From: a virus
Reading direction: 5' to 3' (one strand)
Virus genome (UHGV): UHGV-0170246
DNA length: 45,982 nucleotides
The translations under genes were made by a program, and so were the position numbers. Every line of letters begins with the position of its first letter. Position 1 is the stretch's first letter. The notes under the pieces are model-generated. The model did no database searches. It was not told the origin of the DNA and worked only from the letters and a program-made list of their open reading frames with translations. Shown piece by piece: positions 806-23,533 of the stretch.

Positions 806-834
806 CTCTTAAAACCACGTAAAGTGGTTATAAT
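806..834 (+). promoter_or_regulatory. Candidate repA promoter: perfect -10 TATAAT (829-834) overlapped by a repressor-type operator palindrome
   Basis: TATAAT read directly; -35 is weak; the palindrome at 813-829 abuts and overlaps the -10. Confidence 0.4.
813..829. promoter_or_regulatory. Operator-like palindrome AACCAC-N5-GTGGTT (AACCACGTAAAGTGGTT)
   Basis: Perfect 6-5-6 inverted repeat; same half-sites as the palindromes in the cI/cro-like intergenic region (10533-10652) and at 9781-9797. Confidence 0.55.
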
Positions 835-4119: not shown

Positions 4120-4500
4120 ATGAGCATGATTAAAATCCGCAAAAATGCTTTCCTTAAAATTCAAACTATCCTGGCTGGTTCTGTTGGCGTGATTTGCCGT
4201 TCTTCTTCAAGCCGCATCGATGACGGCTACGATGATGAGTACCGTGTGTCCTCGTGCGATGAGGCTTTAACCTGGCTGAAGGAGAATCAGGAACGTGCCC
4301 AGGTATATCTGGAAACAGAGAACGGCAATCAGATGCTGCGTATTAGCGGTCGTTATGGATTTGAAACTACATTCATGGCCTATTTTAATCAGGCTTACTT
4401 TGACAAGGAGCTGGCCTGGTACACTGATCGCATGAGCAAAAGCGAGCCAGCCCCGATTACACCGCCGAACAATAAACCATTTTTATTCCTCGTTAAGTAA
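4120..4500 (+). CDS. Hypothetical protein, first gene after cassette A
   Basis: 126-aa ORF with GGAG RBS inside the conserved leader. Confidence 0.5.
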   Translation: MSMIKIRKNAFLKIQTILAGSVGVICRSSSSRIDDGYDDEYRVSSCDEALTWLKENQERAQVYLETENGNQMLRISGRYGFETTFMAYFNQAYFDKELAWYTDRMSKSEPAPITPPNNKPFLFLVK

Positions 4501-5645: not shown

Positions 5646-6791
5646 TTATGGTCTGCTTTTCTGTGCCAGCTTATCAGCACATGTTTTTATCAGATCCTGT
5701 AGTGTCCTGGCTGGCAGGTTTGCATCCAGTACGCTGAGTATGCTGTTGTGTTCTGCTTGGTCGACTACTTTGCCTGTCGGTGGTAGTAGCTTGAGCTGAG
5801 GATTCAGGTTTTCGTCAAAGCTGATAAGTGCTCTGGCGTTTCTGAGCAGATCAAGAAGTAAGGCTGATATCACATTTTCCTGAGTCATTGCTGGCAGACT
5901 TAGCGCCGCTTTGGTTTTCCCTGTTGCCTTGTCAAACTCCTTGATTAGTTCCTTCCTGTAGTTCGGTTCCGTTAATAGCCGATTATGCTCTGTTGCCGCG
6001 CGGATAATCGTTTTTTCCTGGTATAGTCGTTTAGCCAGATCACGCTCGTACTGTGTTTTTAACACGCTGCTGATAGCGTTAAAGGCTTCAATGTAGGCCA
6101 GCTTGATATCTTTCACGCTTGGACCGTCGATGCTCTCCATGAGCAAGGTAAATCCGTCTTTTGTCATGCGATAGATTGTTATTTCGCGGTCGCTTCCTTC
6201 CAGCGGTCGTTGCTCTTTAAAGAAGTGACGCGCCGCAGCTGTGCGAGGAATGCGTAACGCATCGATGGCCATAACGATGGAATTGTTTGTGGTGCTGAAT
6301 GCCTGGGCAACATCGGCTGAGGTTGTGAGTGGCTCGTTGTTGCACACCTTAATGTAATACATTGGTTTAGCGTTGAGCGTATCGACAACCTCACGAGCAT
6401 TGTTTGGTGAGACGGTTACGGTCGCGGCCGTTTGCGCGTTCTGGTTGAAGTAGCAGTCTTCCAGCCGTTCGAATACATCCCACGCCTGATCGGTTTCGAG
6501 CATTTTAGCGTGACGTGCAGCCCCGCGTTCTGTCCAGAGGATGAGGGAGCGGACTTTAGGTGAAACTGGATTTTGAGAGTAGTTTAAAGCTACCCGCAAT
6601 TCTTTAAGGTCATTACCAACAACTTTGAAAAAGTGTTTCCCTTCAACGAAACGTGCTTTGTTCTCATGATGATTCTGGCGAATACGCACCGGCTCAGTGC
6701 CGTAAAGCTGTGCTAGTAACTCGGTAGTAATGACAGGGATTTGGTTATGCAGGATAGGCTGTAGGGTGTTAACGGTCGGAAGCGTTTTCAT
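5646..6791 (-). CDS. Antirepressor-like protein (ORF6N-type N-terminus, Rha-like central region)
   Basis: 381 aa; N-terminal pattern PVITTELLAQLYGTEPVRIRQNHHENKARFVEGKHFFK and internal TTSADVAQAF segment typical of phage Ant/Rha-type regulators (recalled domain patterns). Confidence 0.55.
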   Translation of the reverse strand: MKTLPTVNTLQPILHNQIPVITTELLAQLYGTEPVRIRQNHHENKARFVEGKHFFKVVGNDLKELRVALNYSQNPVSPKVRSLILWTERGAARHAKMLETDQAWDVFERLEDCYFNQNAQTAATVTVSPNNAREVVDTLNAKPMYYIKVCNNEPLTTSADVAQAFSTTNNSIVMAIDALRIPRTAAARHFFKEQRPLEGSDREITIYRMTKDGFTLLMESIDGPSVKDIKLAYIEAFNAISSVLKTQYERDLAKRLYQEKTIIRAATEHNRLLTEPNYRKELIKEFDKATGKTKAALSLPAMTQENVISALLLDLLRNARALISFDENLNPQLKLLPPTGKVVDQAEHNSILSVLDANLPARTLQDLIKTCADKLAQKSRP

Positions 6792-6979
6792 TTTGCACCT
6801 CCCATAACTACTTTGGTTACGAGGGAGATTTTTGCGTCAGAAACAGCGTTATCGTTGCTGGCGATGCGCATAGCTTCGCGCTCGATGATTTCAGCCAGGC
6901 GGAATTTATCGGCGTATGAGGCTTTCTTGAGAAGGATCTTTACGAGGTTGACGTAATAGTCATGGGGTAAGTTTGTCAT
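6788..6979 (-). CDS. Small hypothetical protein, first gene of the antirepressor operon
   Basis: 63-aa ORF; its stop overlaps the antirepressor start (ATGA). Confidence 0.35.
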   Translation of the reverse strand: MTNLPHDYYVNLVKILLKKASYADKFRLAEIIEREAMRIASNDNAVSDAKISLVTKVVMGGAK

Positions 6980-7394
6980 GGTGATAGTTCCCTTAAAGGT
7001 TAAGGATACTCACCACCGTCTGGTTCCAATCATTGGGTGGTGAGACGTACAGGGTTGGAACTACCGGTCACCATGGAATCCGGCGAGTCTTACGACTCCC
7101 CCGCACGCCCCACCATAATTTGGGTGTAGCAGTGCTTTACGCATAAAAAAACCGCTAACGCGGTATGCGCCATGATGATTATCGGGGTTCCAATCCCGAC
7201 CGTAGATTTTGCTACGGCTCGGAAAGTGTCCACCAATGGCGCATTTATGTCAATACAGAGGGATTTTAACAGAGACAACCACATAGCGTGGGTTTATTGG
7301 TAGGCAGAAACAAAAAAACCGCCCTATTGAGGACGGTTCTTTCGTGCTGATCGGATTCGCGGTCCTTTCAGCATAACGTCGTTGTACTAATACA

Positions 7395-7414: not shown

Positions 7415-7644
7415 AACTACATTCTTACCCAACTGAGGTGAATAGTCCACTATTCATATAAAAAAATTTAGCTCATTAGCTCATGCAAAATGAAGGTTTT
7501 TAACTTATTTACGTGTAATCTCATGTAATAAAAGCGTTTTTTATTCCTTCATTATGAAGGGTATGACGTGTAATATGGCTTGGGGCCTTTCCGCCGATTC
7601 GCACCCGGGCACTGACTTTCAGGAAAGGATTATCCACTTGCCGT

Positions 7645-7664
7645 ACCACGCAGGCACAAACAGC
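7645..7664. repeat. Direct repeat copy 2 (ACCACGCAGGCACAAACAGC)
   Basis: See copy 1. Confidence 0.6.
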
Positions 7665-7728
7665 GTGCTTGCTCTCGCGTCATTTTCGTCGGTGGGGATG
7701 CCGTGAAACGGCCTGTAAGGGCCACACA

Positions 7729-7851
7729 ATGAAAAAATACTACATGTGTATTTTTATCGTTGTTACTGGAGCTTTGTTTACGCCACATGGGGAGGGTTGG
7801 AAGATTACTGATAACGCTCTGAATGTGACGATAAACATTAGCAGCAAGTAG
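7729..7851 (+). CDS. Possible small hydrophobic peptide (40 aa)
   Basis: In-frame ATG of ORF 7669-7851; one predicted transmembrane stretch (YYMCIFIVVTGALF); followed at once by a strong terminator; no recognisable family. Confidence 0.2.
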   Translation: MKKYYMCIFIVVTGALFTPHGEGWKITDNALNVTINISSK

Positions 7852-7856
7852 CGATT

Positions 7857-7880
7857 AGGCCCCTTCGGGGGCCTTTTTTA
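7857..7880 (+). terminator. Rho-independent terminator
   Basis: 7-bp stem AGGCCCC/GGGGCCT with TTCG tetraloop followed by TTTTTT. Confidence 0.75.
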
Positions 7881-8028
7881 CTGCAACCTGCATTTGATAG
7901 CTGTTTACCATTGCAGTAGCTTATATACCGTAAGAGCCACAAGATGTGGTTACGATTTCAATACGGGGTTGATATGAAAAAGCGGTATGACGAATTTGAT
8001 GGTTTCTAAGAGACGTTGACCTCTAATG

Positions 8029-8055
8029 AGGCGGGTTGGTTGCCCGCCTTTTTTA
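8029..8055 (+). terminator. Rho-independent terminator
   Basis: Stem GGCGGG/CCCGCC with a 7-nt loop followed by TTTTTT; second plus-strand terminator ~170 bp after the first. Confidence 0.7.
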
Positions 8056-8276: not shown

Positions 8277-8525
8277 TTACTTCTGGTTGTATTGAGCCTT
8301 GAGTAACTCAAAAGATTTTGTCAGCACTTCTTTCAATGACATATCCATTGAACTGGCGAACGTTTTGTACTCGCGTTTAAATTCAGGGTCGACGTTAAAC
8401 GCCATTTGTGCCCCACCTGATTTGGTTCTGGTTGGCGTTTCAGTCGGGTCGAAAACCTGCGGTTGTTCGATCGATGGCGGTACGCCTTTGCTGTTCTTCT
8501 TTGGTGGTTTTGATGGTGCGGCCAT
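8277..8525 (-). CDS. ParG-like ribbon-helix-helix centromere-binding protein
   Basis: 82 aa, immediately downstream of parA; unstructured basic N-terminal tail and C-terminal RHH-like segment (FNVDPEFKREYKTFASSMDMSLKEVL). Confidence 0.6.
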   Translation of the reverse strand: MAAPSKPPKKNSKGVPPSIEQPQVFDPTETPTRTKSGGAQMAFNVDPEFKREYKTFASSMDMSLKEVLTKSFELLKAQYNQK

Positions 8526-8537
8526 GTGTATCCCCTC

Positions 8538-8570
8538 TTATATAAATCTATAAAACTATAATTATATATT
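8538..8570. repeat. AT-rich motif locus (TATAAATCTATAAAACTATAATTATATATT) downstream of parG
   Basis: Member of the dispersed TATAATTATATA(AAT) motif family. Confidence 0.55.
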
Positions 8571-9237
8571 ACGCGGCAGTAGTCAGAGCCTCAAGCTGGT
8601 TGATAATCCCCTGAATAACGTCGTCTGCCTTTTTGCGTGGCGCAACGTATGAGCATTCAATGAGGCTTAAGCCCTTATCCTGAGCTTTGCTCAGAGCTGG
8701 CTTGTGGGGAATGTACTTATCGACAACAAAGTATGGCGTATTAGCCAGGTACTCTTGGGCTTCAATATAGTCAGCTTCATTTTCAGCCGCGCCGGAAAAC
8801 ACCATGCAAATTTTCTTGATTGGCACACCCTTTTTAACGATGCCGTGAGCAGTGTTAACGGTGGTTTCCAGGTCATCGGTAGAGAATCGGGTTGGCAAAA
8901 TAACCATATCCAGAAATTCAGATAGCTTCGGTACTGATTCAGATGCGTAGGCACCGCCATCAACGATAACCAGGTCGTATACTTCTGATTCGATGATTTT
9001 CTGGACTTGTGATGGTGTGCCGCACGGCTGCGCCGCGATTGCTGGTTCGATATTGTTGGCCATTCTGCGTTGTACCCAACGCGTTACCGTTCCGTTAAGC
9101 ACATCCATATCGATCAGGCATACATTCCAGCCAGCCTTTGCATAAGCAACTGCTAAAGCACGGGCAATTGTTGATTTGGTTACGCCGCCTTTTCCGTTGA
9201 AAATACCTACAGAGATAGTCATTTGTCGAGACTCCAT
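8569..9237 (-). CDS. parA: ParA-family partition ATPase (small type Ib ParA/ParF-like)
   Basis: 222 aa; deviant Walker A GKGGVTKST near the N-terminus; followed by a small RHH protein gene. Confidence 0.8.
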   Translation of the reverse strand: MESRQMTISVGIFNGKGGVTKSTIARALAVAYAKAGWNVCLIDMDVLNGTVTRWVQRRMANNIEPAIAAQPCGTPSQVQKIIESEVYDLVIVDGGAYASESVPKLSEFLDMVILPTRFSTDDLETTVNTAHGIVKKGVPIKKICMVFSGAAENEADYIEAQEYLANTPYFVVDKYIPHKPALSKAQDKGLSLIECSYVAPRKKADDVIQGIINQLEALTTAA

Positions 9238-9246
9238 GTGTTTGGT

Positions 9247-9350
9247 TATATAATTCTATAAATCTATATTTATAGAACGAGGTAAGCATAACCAACTTTT
9301 TGGCGGATGGAAAGTGTTTTATATAATTATATAAATCTATAATCATATAA
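9247..9350. repeat. Two AT-rich motif blocks upstream of parA (candidate par promoter/centromere)
   Basis: TATATAATTCTATAAATCTATATTTATAGA and TTATATAATTATATAAATCTATAATCATATAA read directly. Confidence 0.55.
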
Positions 9351-9372
9351 GCGGGCGTTAGCCCGCTTGCAG

Positions 9373-9747
9373 TCAGAGGTCAGCTATCGTTGATATCAGT
9401 TGATTTGCTAGCTGTCGCTGTTTACGTGAGAGGGTTAGAGCAGCTTCTGAGCGGTCGCTAAGAGGGGTGTTTTCATCAAGAATCATGAGGCATACAGAAA
9501 TAATAGCCCTGTTATATGCCATCAATGGCTGGCACAGCTTCGATACCGCTGGCACATCGTATTGCAAGGCCGTTTTGAGGCAGACTTTTTGTTCTGATGC
9601 CAGATGAAGGATAGATTCTATCCAGTCGATATCTTTCTCATTATCAATGATTTGGCATAACATACACTCAATCGCTATGTTCAACGCTTGGATTTCGATT
9701 CCAGCAGTGATCAGAGTTTCATTTTTATTGGCTGTATGTAATTCCAT
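9373..9747 (-). CDS. Hypothetical protein downstream of the repressor gene
   Basis: 124-aa ORF, same strand as the repressor; an operator-type palindrome lies between the two genes. Confidence 0.45.
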   Translation of the reverse strand: MELHTANKNETLITAGIEIQALNIAIECMLCQIIDNEKDIDWIESILHLASEQKVCLKTALQYDVPAVSKLCQPLMAYNRAIISVCLMILDENTPLSDRSEAALTLSRKQRQLANQLISTIADL

Positions 9748-9780
9748 GCGTAGCCTCTTTTATACTTTTACATGTTGTCA

Positions 9781-9797
9781 AAACCACATAATGTGGT
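9781..9797. promoter_or_regulatory. Operator-like palindrome AACCACATAATGTGGTT
   Basis: Perfect 6-5-6 inverted repeat, same half-sites as 813-829. Confidence 0.55.
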
Positions 9798-9839
9798 TTT
9801 TTTGAGCGTAGAAATGCACGGCTTTCGCCGTGCTGTGTA

Positions 9840-10496
9840 TCATAACCAGTTGACAACACTAACTACGCGGCCAAGAACTTTATAACGCTTAAATTCCTCG
9901 TTATTCAGATGCTTAGTGTTCATTTCAGCATCCCTTTCGGTTGACAGCATAACAGCATTGTCACCCGGTATGACTCTACAGTGCCTCAAAACAACCAGGC
10001 CATTTCTGTCTTCAAGGGCATAGATCCCCTCATGAATCTCTGTATCGTCTGTATTAATCAGGACTTGGGAGCCAGGGGATATTGTTGGTGACATTAACTC
10101 ATCGTTGCTCTGGAGAACTGACAGAGACGATGGGTTGATGTTCTTGCTTCGTAGAATCTCCTGTTCTATCGCCAGCACTGGCTTTTCTCCGGCGTGCGAT
10201 GCTATGTCATTTTTTATAGCTACAAGCCCAGGAATAACAGGAGCGTTAGTATTCTGGGGTGGGAACGGGTTATCTGTTAAGCACGCGATATAAGGCGCTG
10301 ATGCTTTCAGGGCGTGCGCGATTTTCTTGATGGCAGGTATCGATGGTTGTCTTAATCCGGCCTCATAGTTCTGCAAGGTGCTTAAGCCTATTCCAGTGAC
10401 TTGCTGGAGATCTCCGGCAGTCATGCCGGATTGTTTCCGTAGAGTCTGAATGCGCAGACCTATTTCTTTCTTGATGTTCTCGTCGTTGCTTTTCAT
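9840..10496 (-). CDS. CI-like phage repressor (N-terminal HTH, C-terminal LexA/S24-like domain)
   Basis: 218 aa; HTH TAGDLQQVTGIGLSTLQNYEAG; C-terminal region has the overall S24 pattern but the GxSM catalytic motif is not obvious on hand alignment. Confidence 0.75.
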   Translation of the reverse strand: MKSNDENIKKEIGLRIQTLRKQSGMTAGDLQQVTGIGLSTLQNYEAGLRQPSIPAIKKIAHALKASAPYIACLTDNPFPPQNTNAPVIPGLVAIKNDIASHAGEKPVLAIEQEILRSKNINPSSLSVLQSNDELMSPTISPGSQVLINTDDTEIHEGIYALEDRNGLVVLRHCRVIPGDNAVMLSTERDAEMNTKHLNNEEFKRYKVLGRVVSVVNWL

Positions 10497-10532: not shown

Positions 10533-10652
10533 TACCACATTTAGTGGTTTTCACATGGTAAGACGAGAGGTGGACCACAAATAGAAGGTTATTTTTTGTT
10601 TCGCCCATTGAAAAACTCACGATATGTGGTTTTAATACCACATATCGTGGTT
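10533..10652. promoter_or_regulatory. Immunity-region operator cluster: three palindromes of the ACCAC-N5-GTGGT type
   Basis: TACCACATTTAGTGGTT (10533-10549), ACTCACGATATGTGGTT (10615-10631), TACCACATATCGTGGTT (10636-10652) between the divergent repressor and rightward early genes. Confidence 0.65.
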
Positions 10653-10670: not shown

Positions 10671-11165
10671 ATGACCTTTCAGGAGTGGGTTGACGAAAAT
10701 GGAGGCCAAATTGGTGTTGCCAGAAAGTTTGGCTTTACGTCATCACTGATTGGTGCCTGGTATCGCTTCGAGAGATTCCCTCGTGCGGATAACCTGACGC
10801 TGCTGGTGGCGTATTCGGAAGGCCGGATTAACGTCCAGCAATGGGCGGCAGATTTTGCCGAACGTCAGCGCCAGCGTAGCGATGGCACATCGGTTCGGCA
10901 GAACAAGATCAAAGGGAATCTCCCTGTTAACTGCTTATCAAGGCTGAAAGCGGTTTTCTCTGAGCTGGGGATGCCTGCGGAGCGTTGCAATCTACGCGGT
11001 CCGCGATTCATTGCTCGCTGGAAACACTCACACGTAACCGTTTCAGAGGTTCGTGATGCGATTACCGTGCTGGAGCTTAAGAATAAAGATTCCAGCGATA
11101 TCGAGCTGATTCATAAGGAGATTAGCAACGCCCGGCGTTCAGCACTTGGGAGGCTTGAGGAATGA
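10671..11165 (+). CDS. Putative HTH regulator, first gene of the rightward early operon (Cro/CII position)
   Basis: 164 aa; divergent from the repressor across the operator cluster; function is by position only. Confidence 0.35.
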   Translation: MTFQEWVDENGGQIGVARKFGFTSSLIGAWYRFERFPRADNLTLLVAYSEGRINVQQWAADFAERQRQRSDGTSVRQNKIKGNLPVNCLSRLKAVFSELGMPAERCNLRGPRFIARWKHSHVTVSEVRDAITVLELKNKDSSDIELIHKEISNARRSALGRLEE

Positions 11166-22861: not shown

Positions 22862-23533
22862 ATGACAAAACATCTTAATGTGGTTTCTTTACCACTTTCT
22901 GTGTTGATTGGTTATGAAAAGAACGCTCGCACACACTCCGTGGAGCAGGTAGATCAGATTGTTGCCAGCATACAGGAGTACGGATGGACTAATCCGATCC
23001 TGATAGACGAGAACAACGTTGTAATTGCTGGTCATGGTCGAATTGTTGCGGCCACTCAGTTGGGGATGGATGACGTTCCCTGCATTGTTCTGGAAGGGCT
23101 AACGGAGAATCAGAAGAAGGCATATCGTCTGGCCGACAACCGTATTCCGCTGAATGCTGGTTGGGATGAAGAGTTGTTAAGCGCGGAACTTGCAGATCTT
23201 GCGGCCGATGATTTTGCTCTGGACTCAATTGGTTTTACTCAGCGCGAACTGGATAACTTATTGAGTGCGGCGGTCTACGATGACACAGAGGGTATGGATA
23301 TCCCATTTGAGAAGGATGAGGCCAAATCAGGCGTAAAAGTTCAGTACCTGTCATTTGGAGGTCATAAAATCCCAGCAACGGATGGGAAGCGGATCGTTTT
23401 GACTGCGCGGTATCTCGTTATGTTGATGATAATGGCAGCTATATCGGATTTGTATCCGCATTGCTGGCTGGGGAGGTGTGCTGATGCTTCATCTCAATTA
23501 CGACATAACGCACCTACGCGGCGCGGAATATAA
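22862..23533 (+). CDS. ParB-like nuclease domain protein (paralogue 1)
   Basis: 223 aa; ParB/Srx motif AGHGR; about 55% identical by eye to the protein at 26151-26741 over the N-terminal ~130 aa. Confidence 0.7.
   Translation: MTKHLNVVSLPLSVLIGYEKNARTHSVEQVDQIVASIQEYGWTNPILIDENNVVIAGHGRIVAATQLGMDDVPCIVLEGLTENQKKAYRLADNRIPLNAGWDEELLSAELADLAADDFALDSIGFTQRELDNLLSAAVYDDTEGMDIPFEKDEAKSGVKVQYLSFGGHKIPATDGKRIVLTARYLVMLMIMAAISDLYPHCWLGRCADASSQLRHNAPTRRGI

Follow-up and report, generated by a model that had tools for sequence, protein, structure and literature searches.

A small gene of a new, narrow protein family behind a predicted CI operator in an enterobacterial phage-plasmid

Gene X and the phage-plasmid that carries it

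The DNA analysed here (UHGV-0170246; the window, 45,982 nucleotides in all) represents a circular RepA/ParA myovirus phage-plasmid of ~48 kb. It encodes a CI repressor of 218 aa (9840..10496, − strand), and 92 nt 3′ of the cI gene, on the same strand, lies a gene for a protein of 124 aa (9373..9747, − strand), here called X, just as an earlier sequence-only reading of this DNA had described. X starts with ATG, 6 bases downstream of a Shine–Dalgarno sequence (AAGAGG, 9754..9759, − strand), and a terminator hairpin, AAGCGGGC-UAAC-GCCCGCUU (9349..9368, − strand; −14.9 kcal/mol), follows directly 3′ of its stop codon. This terminator separates X from the promoter and repeat region of parA, where two 32-nt direct repeats (9246-9277 and 9319-9350; 88% identical, 73 nt apart and with internal palindromes) flank the parA promoter. 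The repeats are likely to be the par operator or centromere, and the distal copy abuts the X terminator. Beyond them are the genes for ParA (8569..9237, − strand) and a ParG-like protein of 82 aa (8277..8525, − strand). Divergent from cI is a Cro-like gene (10671-11165, 164 aa), the first ~50 residues of which weakly resemble a repressor HTH (PHROG 35, E 0.002). A comparison of X with the 126-aa ORF at 4120..4500, as a candidate paralogue, revealed no relationship.

The 1.5 kb surrounding X is 99% identical to the corresponding DNA of three Yersinia pestis myophages (vB_YpM_39, 41 and 44) and of 58 PLSDB plasmids, which are from E. coli nearly throughout. Of 5,426 complete E. coli genomes, 71 carry the region; it was plasmid-borne in 72 of the 73 places where it occurred, and is present in all ATCC 25922 assemblies, in which strain X is DR76_RS25550 of plasmid NZ_CP009073. 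One plasmid is annotated with P2-like tail genes, a terminase, a portal, an IncFII-type RepA, ParA and toxin-antitoxin genes, and related elements also occur in Citrobacter, Enterobacter, Serratia, Klebsiella, Salmonella and Yokenella. Neither X nor CI had a match among the GTDB species-representative genomes. A literature search under the X protein accessions and the ATCC 25922 locus tags returned nothing, and the X region goes unmentioned in the published phage-plasmid papers and in the paper on Yersinia phage HQ103.

The X protein has a mass of 13.8 kDa, a pI of 4.8 and a net charge of −6, with a range across the family of pI 4.4-4.8 and net charge −4.5 to −9.3. It matches PHROG 7632 ('unknown function') over its full length (E 5.5e-84, residues 1-124 of 124), and sequence searches of Pfam, NCBIfam, PADLOC and the PDB gave nothing credible, in keeping with the earlier view that the family is an unrecognised one. 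Matches to a NucC-type protein (PADLOC, E 0.022, 12.5 bits, in a helical stretch) and to PHROG 9665 'transcriptional regulator' (E 0.077) were treated as noise. Structure prediction and a remote homology search had been proposed in that reading as the way forward; the two gave an up-down four-helix bundle (AF2 model, pLDDT 91, pTM 0.84) and no known family. Foldseek returned no significant match and no informative solved structure. Its top matches were designed bundles, and most of the natural proteins among the matches were modules that bind helices or other proteins, FAT domains and talin being examples.

The conserved face of X consists of the N-terminal helix and a DIDWIES turn, and the motifs A-[IL]-E-C (helix 1) and E-A-x-L-T (helix 4) persist across subfamilies. 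We found no membrane segment (the maximum 19-residue Kyte-Doolittle hydropathy is 1.5, in stretches that contain charged residues), nucleic-acid-binding motif or enzymatic feature. As a soluble acidic bundle without DNA-binding, enzymatic or membrane features, X is most probably a cytoplasmic protein that acts through binding another protein, judging from the model. An N-like antiterminator was ruled out by the acidic pI and the confidently predicted fold.

CI operators and the spacer between cI and X

Between cI and X, 33 nt 5′ of the X ATG, lies a perfect 21-bp palindrome, AAAACCACATAATGTGGTTTT (9780..9800, core 9783-9797). The sequence-only reading had placed an operator-type palindrome at 9781-9797. 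The palindrome does lie between the two genes, with those coordinates one base off: the 17-mer AACCACATAATGTGGTT occupies 9782-9798, and the symmetry is perfect out to 21 bp. Its core motif, ACCAC-N5-GTGGT, occurs as four perfect copies in the 46 kb window (at 814, 9783, 10534 and 10637), compared to 0.025 expected from shuffles. Allowing up to one mismatch raises the number of sites to 9, compared to 0.86 expected, and 0 of 100 shuffles reached as many. Because this core recurs at the cI/cro operators and far above its frequency in shuffles, the sequence identifies the palindrome as an operator of the adjacent CI, rather than a chance inverted repeat. It is the best predicted CI site in the genome, and it lies just 5′ of the X ribosome-binding site (RBS). 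As − strand RNA, the same palindrome could form a hairpin of −9.3 kcal/mol, followed by a U run. Control of X by LexA was ruled out, as LexA boxes are at chance level in the window and none is near X.

The divergent cI/cro region holds two perfect copies of the operator and one with two mismatches. An OR-type operator, ACCACATTTAGTGGT (10534..10548), adjoins the cI start, and an operator pair (10616..10651) brackets the −10 element of a PR-like promoter (TTGAAA-N17-TTTAAT) driving the cro-like gene. A further perfect operator, ACCACGTAAAGTGGT (814..828), abuts a consensus TATAAT (GTGGT runs directly into TATAAT, 814-834) 5′ of an IncFII-type repA (855-1847). CI therefore appears to use single dispersed operators at promoters, and it probably controls the replication initiator repA.

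An operator with one mismatch (7278-7292) lies 6 nt before TGTTAAAAT, 5′ of an isrK/C4/icd/ant operon. This − strand module (5646-7292) is P1 immI-like and comprises the operator, TGTTAAAAT, isrK RNA (7145-7218, − strand), a C4 antisense RNA recognised by Rfam (7033-7120, − strand), a 63-aa ORF (6788..6979, − strand) and an ORF6N/pRha antirepressor (5646..6791, − strand). The ORF-poor stretch from this module to the par operon contains a full-length ryfA-family RNA (Rfam RF00126, 134.6 bits; 7581-7879, + strand). An operator-like site, GCCACAAGATGTGGT, belongs to a + strand unit at 7936-8052 and abuts a TACGAT (GTGGT again running directly into it); 3′ of this site are ~95 nt in which an ORF of 11 aa is the only one, and the unit closes with a strong terminator, GGCGGGttggttGCCCGCC-T6. 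The unit is a candidate for a CI-repressed small RNA or micro-peptide. A LexA-box-like sequence with one mismatch, CTGTTTACCATTGCAG (7901-7916), lies 20 nt upstream of its operator. Elsewhere, two adjoining near-operator sites, ACATCTTAATGTGGT and ACCACTTTCTGTGTT (22870-22905), may mark one more promoter under CI control, within the late or packaging region.

The cI gene is followed by an intrinsic terminator, GCACGGC-GAAA-GCCGTGC (9807..9833, − strand; −15 kcal/mol, z = −4.7), with AUUUCU after the stem. In relatives the stem is kept, the loop differs in nearly every lineage, and 5-7 U follow. When the 92-95 nt spacer between cI and X was compared across seven diverged relatives, its identity per column was 84%, while flanking synonymous sites are saturated (dS >1.5). 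Three blocks are invariant: the hairpin GCACGG(C)...(G)CCGTGC (with 5-7 T after it in relatives and ATTTCT in the window); AAAACCAC-N5-GTGGTTT, in which the half-sites are fixed and the centres seen were ATTAT, ATTTT, GCTTT, GATTT, GTTAC, GTTTC, GTTTT and ACAAT; and, in the close subfamily, GAGAGGC-N-CGC-ATG. The least conserved part is the 20-25 nt separating the operator from the RBS.

Neither a consensus scan nor a position weight matrix (PWM), applied to ten loci, found a convincing sigma-70 promoter for X. The best candidates scored at or under the mean of random genomic 100-mers, compared to 7-11.6 for PR. The only semi-conserved promoter-like motif between operator and RBS, TGTAAAAGT (9764..9772, − strand; TGTAAA(A)GT, ~10 nt beyond the operator), is a weak candidate for an extended −10-like element, with a PWM score no higher than the background of random genomic segments. 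A perfect TTGACA at 9775-9780 was ruled out as a −35 element, as it has no −10 partner and is missing in relatives. An antisense promoter on the + strand, inspected by eye, was ruled out because it is not conserved. Activation of X by CI was also ruled out, since the centre of the operator would lie at ~−33 to −38 from any possible start, and not at −41.5.

Conservation of the layout and divergence of X and CI

Homologues of X formed 12 clusters in a word-indexed search of 5.8 billion proteins and 20 clusters in a profile search. When 1.84 billion cluster representatives were scanned exhaustively with HMMER, only 7 representatives of the family came up. All of the homologues are unnamed 'hypothetical' proteins, and their hosts are Escherichia, Salmonella, Citrobacter, Yokenella, Enterobacter and Klebsiella. 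X is kept in syntenic relatives at 44-98% identity. Six diverged relatives of X (44-60% identity) were retrieved together with their flanks, and all six kept the gene order cro-like, cI, X, ParA and the 82-aa protein, as far as the contigs reach. The layout in every relative, including those described below whose CI is only ~30% identical, runs cI, intrinsic terminator, CI operator or operators, RBS, X, X terminator, parA.

The pairwise dN/dS of X (median ~0.2, with dS mostly >1.5) is the highest locally. A value of this size indicates that X encodes a protein under purifying selection, and on this sequence evidence we take X to be a real gene. By mean pairwise identity it is the fastest-evolving gene in the neighbourhood, at 59%, compared to 70% for CI, 73% for g171, 77% for Cro, 85% for Ref, 90% for DUF1064, 93% for the ParG-like protein and 94% for ParA. 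Between clades, the identity of its C-terminal half falls to 36-51%. Some database alleles are disrupted. Three (P0008, P0010 and P0011) are frameshifted, in either direction, right after Lys54 at an A5 run in codons 52-54 (GAACAAAAAGTC, 9586-9592), and a fourth (P0020) is joined to IS-derived sequence at residue 30. Disrupted alleles such as these could be genuine inactivations or homopolymer assembly errors; the occurrence of several independent ones suggests that X is dispensable for plasmid carriage.

CI combines an HTH_3 domain with a degenerate S24-like domain, and its Pfam S24 match is under threshold (18.4 bits, against a cutoff of 23.3). When it was aligned with LexA and lambda CI, Leu occupied the position of the catalytic Ser and Ser that of the Lys, and the Ala-Gly cleavage site was absent; all five family members aligned share these features. 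CI is thus predicted to be non-cleavable: lacking the Ser/Lys dyad and the Ala-Gly site it should not undergo autocleavage, so that its inactivation would have to come from proteins. Its DNA-binding domain is 84% conserved, compared to 63.5% for its C-terminal domain. Divergence of X tracks that of the CI C-terminal domain best (Spearman 0.74, compared to 0.49 for the CI N-terminus and 0.55 for Cro). This co-divergence, seen across 7 taxa in 4 clades, is suggestive at most and may simply reflect shared phylogeny; by dN, X tracks g171 and DUF1064 more closely than cI.

Contigs of ~45 kb in which CI is 29-32% identical came from an alignment-based IMG/VR scan that used CI as the query. These contigs keep the same order, with an ORF of 124-133 aa between cI and parA. 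The long C-terminal extension of the protein in the Cro position is also kept even in this distant subfamily. The distant ORF family (X2; 33 clusters from Enterobacter, Serratia and Citrobacter) is also predicted to form four helices. The direct match between X and X2 is weak (hhalign E 6e-5, probability 65%), and their homology is established by a bridging protein, P0056. The X profile finds P0056 at E 1.8e-9 in 1.84e9 proteins, the X2 profile matches it with an hhalign probability of 97%, and P0056 itself is 35% identical to the L046 ORF by BLASTP (E 1e-17).

Operators in the distant subfamily differ, being of the asymmetric AAACTAC-N5-GAG and AACCAC-N5-GGG types. In the spacer 5′ of the X homologue there is one site of each type, after a GCACG...CGTGC-T5 terminator, and one of these sites agrees with the PR operator of the same phage at 16 of 17 positions, which was equalled in 0 of 200 shuffles. 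Thus, the sequence of the operator has changed along with the repressor while the arrangement has stayed constant, and for these predicted sites no other finding speaks as strongly for a functional role of repressor binding 5′ of X. Taken with the invariant half-sites and the motif shared with the cI/cro operators, it bears out the operator-type character that the earlier reading had given the palindrome.

Possible roles of X

What the analysis shows is the gene itself, the identity of its operator, both terminators, a layout kept in relatives, the class of fold and a narrow distribution; repression of X by CI, the timing of X expression and a role directed at CI are inferred. X is a self-contained, single-gene cassette (cI terminator, CI operator, RBS, ORF and its own terminator), and a fixed part of the immunity and partition region that a narrow set of RepA/ParA myovirus phage-plasmids from enterobacteria share. 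The palindrome would act as a high-affinity CI operator, placed between terminated cI transcription, the only upstream source, and the X RBS. A terminator and a CI operator between cI and X point to a CI-gated architecture, and argue against rex-like co-expression. Since the terminator isolates X, and the same operator touches promoters of repressor-type units elsewhere, CI bound at this site would be expected to hold X expression at zero or a very low level once lysogeny is established. This could happen by two routes: CI may occlude a weak, −35-less promoter that overlaps the operator, or it may block residual read-through from cI. X would be released once CI is absent or inactivated, that is, in a fresh infection or upon induction. 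A further reading of the site is that the operator at 9780-9800 could be mainly a distal looping site for OR.

We consider X more likely to be off in the lysogen than to be rex-like, and the role that we favour, if only tentatively, is that of a modulator of the CI switch. X would act on the lysis/lysogeny decision via the non-cleavable CI, would resemble P1 Coi in function but not by homology, and would add positive feedback as repression begins to fail. Several points weigh against this reading. No convincing sigma-70 promoter was found between operator and RBS, and the co-divergence with the C-terminal domain of CI may reflect shared phylogeny. The element already has a canonical ORF6N/pRha antirepressor under C4 RNA control, so that a second antirepressor is not required; and X has no sequence similarity to any known antirepressor, and its fold is generic.

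In P1, the C1 operators are dispersed, the antirepressor gene coi adjoins c1 and is repressed by C1, and a separate Ant is controlled by c4 RNA (PMC8546580). Like P1 with its immC region, the element studied here is a phage-plasmid whose master repressor is predicted not to be SOS-cleaved and whose operators are single and dispersed. X resembles coi in being a gene for a small soluble protein that adjoins the repressor gene and has a repressor operator in front, and in both elements a separate icd/ant module under C4 antisense RNA control lies elsewhere (here with an Rfam match to C4). X differs from Coi in several respects. The two have no sequence similarity (hhalign E 0.46, probability 0.1%); Coi has 69 aa and is encoded 5′ of c1 in one operon, whereas X has 124 aa and is encoded 3′ of cI, past a terminator; that X binds CI is a proposal made here by analogy; and the HTH_3/S24-like CI is unrelated in type to P1 C1.

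The layout also resembles the PL/OL early-left region of lambdoid phages (lambda N, P22 gene 24), where repressor gene, operator or operators, first gene and terminator follow in the same order. However, lambdoid N proteins are basic, arginine-rich and disordered, and act on nut RNA, while X is acidic and folded, and it does not head an operon: the autonomous par operon comes next. The CB repressor of N15 has operators at cro/Q and 5′ of repA, and the operator at 814-828 here likewise sits at the promoter of a replication initiator. N15 is, unlike this element, a linear siphovirus with a telomerase, and none of the homology searches that we ran found an X homologue in it. The N15 repressor is also non-proteolytic (PMC10432266).

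Some plasmid-like prophages encode small orphan TF-smORF or Qtip-type proteins, in part near par genes, which inactivate their cognate cI without proteolysis and are repressor-specific (Silpe et al. 2023, PMC10432266). These smORFs have ~55-60 aa, and each depends for its expression on a dedicated transcription factor encoded next to it (PMC10432266), whereas X has 124 aa, the CI operator itself in front of it and no homology to them. A more specific proposal, speculative and on balance rather unlikely, is that the X family are a new class of repressor-gated commitment factors in phage-plasmids whose CI is non-cleavable. Each X, kept off by CI itself, would upon release bind the fast-evolving C-terminal domain of its cognate CI and lock the element into lytic growth, with immunity-type specificity residing in the protein pair and not in the operator DNA.

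X may instead be an early, CI-repressed factor for host takeover or anti-defence, which neutralises a host protein such as a nuclease (e.g. RecBCD), a restriction enzyme, a protease or a division protein. The regulatory evidence for such a factor is identical to that for the CI-gated reading, and the position of X is equivalent to that of the first PL gene of lambdoid phages. Comparable early factors are lambda Gam, Ral, CIII and Kil, from the PL operon, and T7 Ocr. X is also acidic (net charge −4.5 to −9.3 in the family) and all-helical, and it diverges rapidly, chiefly in the C-terminal half (36-51% between clades). However, it has no sequence or fold similarity to Gam, Ocr, ArdA or anti-CRISPR families, and it is far less densely charged than the classical DNA mimics. 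Its family is moreover confined to one phage-plasmid lineage (7 representatives in 1.84e9), where a wider spread would be expected. We therefore consider an anti-host role unlikely.

The sequence-only reading had pointed out that genes at this position, expressed in the lysogen, often serve superinfection exclusion or abortive infection, as rex does for lambda. For this X would have to be made in the lysogen, either through partial read-through past the cI terminator or from a constitutive promoter that went unrecognised, and the operator would mainly be an OL-like site looping to OR. Like rexA and rexB, X directly follows cI on the same strand and precedes the next unit controlled by an operator; an independent promoter of X is not recognisable; and the weak U-tract of the cI terminator in the window (AUUUCU) makes some read-through into X plausible. 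Its rate of evolution, with the top local dN/dS (0.2), is like that of arms-race genes, and the frameshifted or IS-disrupted alleles would fit a gene dispensable for maintenance. In lambda, however, one transcript from PRM covers cI and rexAB, and OL is located past rexAB, whereas here a terminator and an operator separate cI from X. The terminator is conserved, with strong U5-7 tracts in relatives, and in all subfamilies the operator or operators lie 3′ of it, right before the RBS, where bound CI would hinder read-through. Exclusion proteins are mostly membrane proteins, and X has no membrane segment. It is a single gene, followed by that for ParA, with no RexB-like polytopic membrane protein and no homology to rex, and it has no credible match to a PADLOC defence family. 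It is also a fixed syntenic core gene across subfamilies and not variable cargo. Nothing found supports the exclusion reading, and the anatomy partly contradicts it; we regard it as unlikely but, like the anti-host role, as a live alternative, and some expression in lysogens by terminator read-through may occur.

Very unlikely, finally, is an accessory role in plasmid maintenance, in which X would modulate the ParA/ParG-like partition system or RepA and link partition or copy number to the state of the repressor: X is invariably directly 5′ of parA and its repeat-flanked promoter, and the CI operator at the repA promoter couples CI to plasmid functions, but X has its own terminator and stands outside the par operon, type Ib par systems need only an ATPase, a small DNA-binding protein and a centromere, and the conservation of ParA (94%) and ParG (93%) while X falls to 44-59% argues against a tight physical partnership.

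The regulatory layout around X is ordinary among temperate phages, and its protein family is new and narrow. Clinical and animal E. coli commonly carry the phage-plasmid, the universal quality-control strain ATCC 25922 among them, and the lysis/lysogeny switch of this common lineage has so far not been described. X is the sole uncharacterised gene within the immunity region that is wired directly to a predicted CI operator, and its role is directly testable in a strain that most laboratories already own. Should X prove to be a defence or anti-defence protein, it would represent a new family. If, as we tentatively favour, X acts on CI, it would extend the Coi logic, by which a repressor represses its own inactivator, to a second and structurally new case, and this would explain why X and the C-terminal domain of CI diverge fast beside constant operators.
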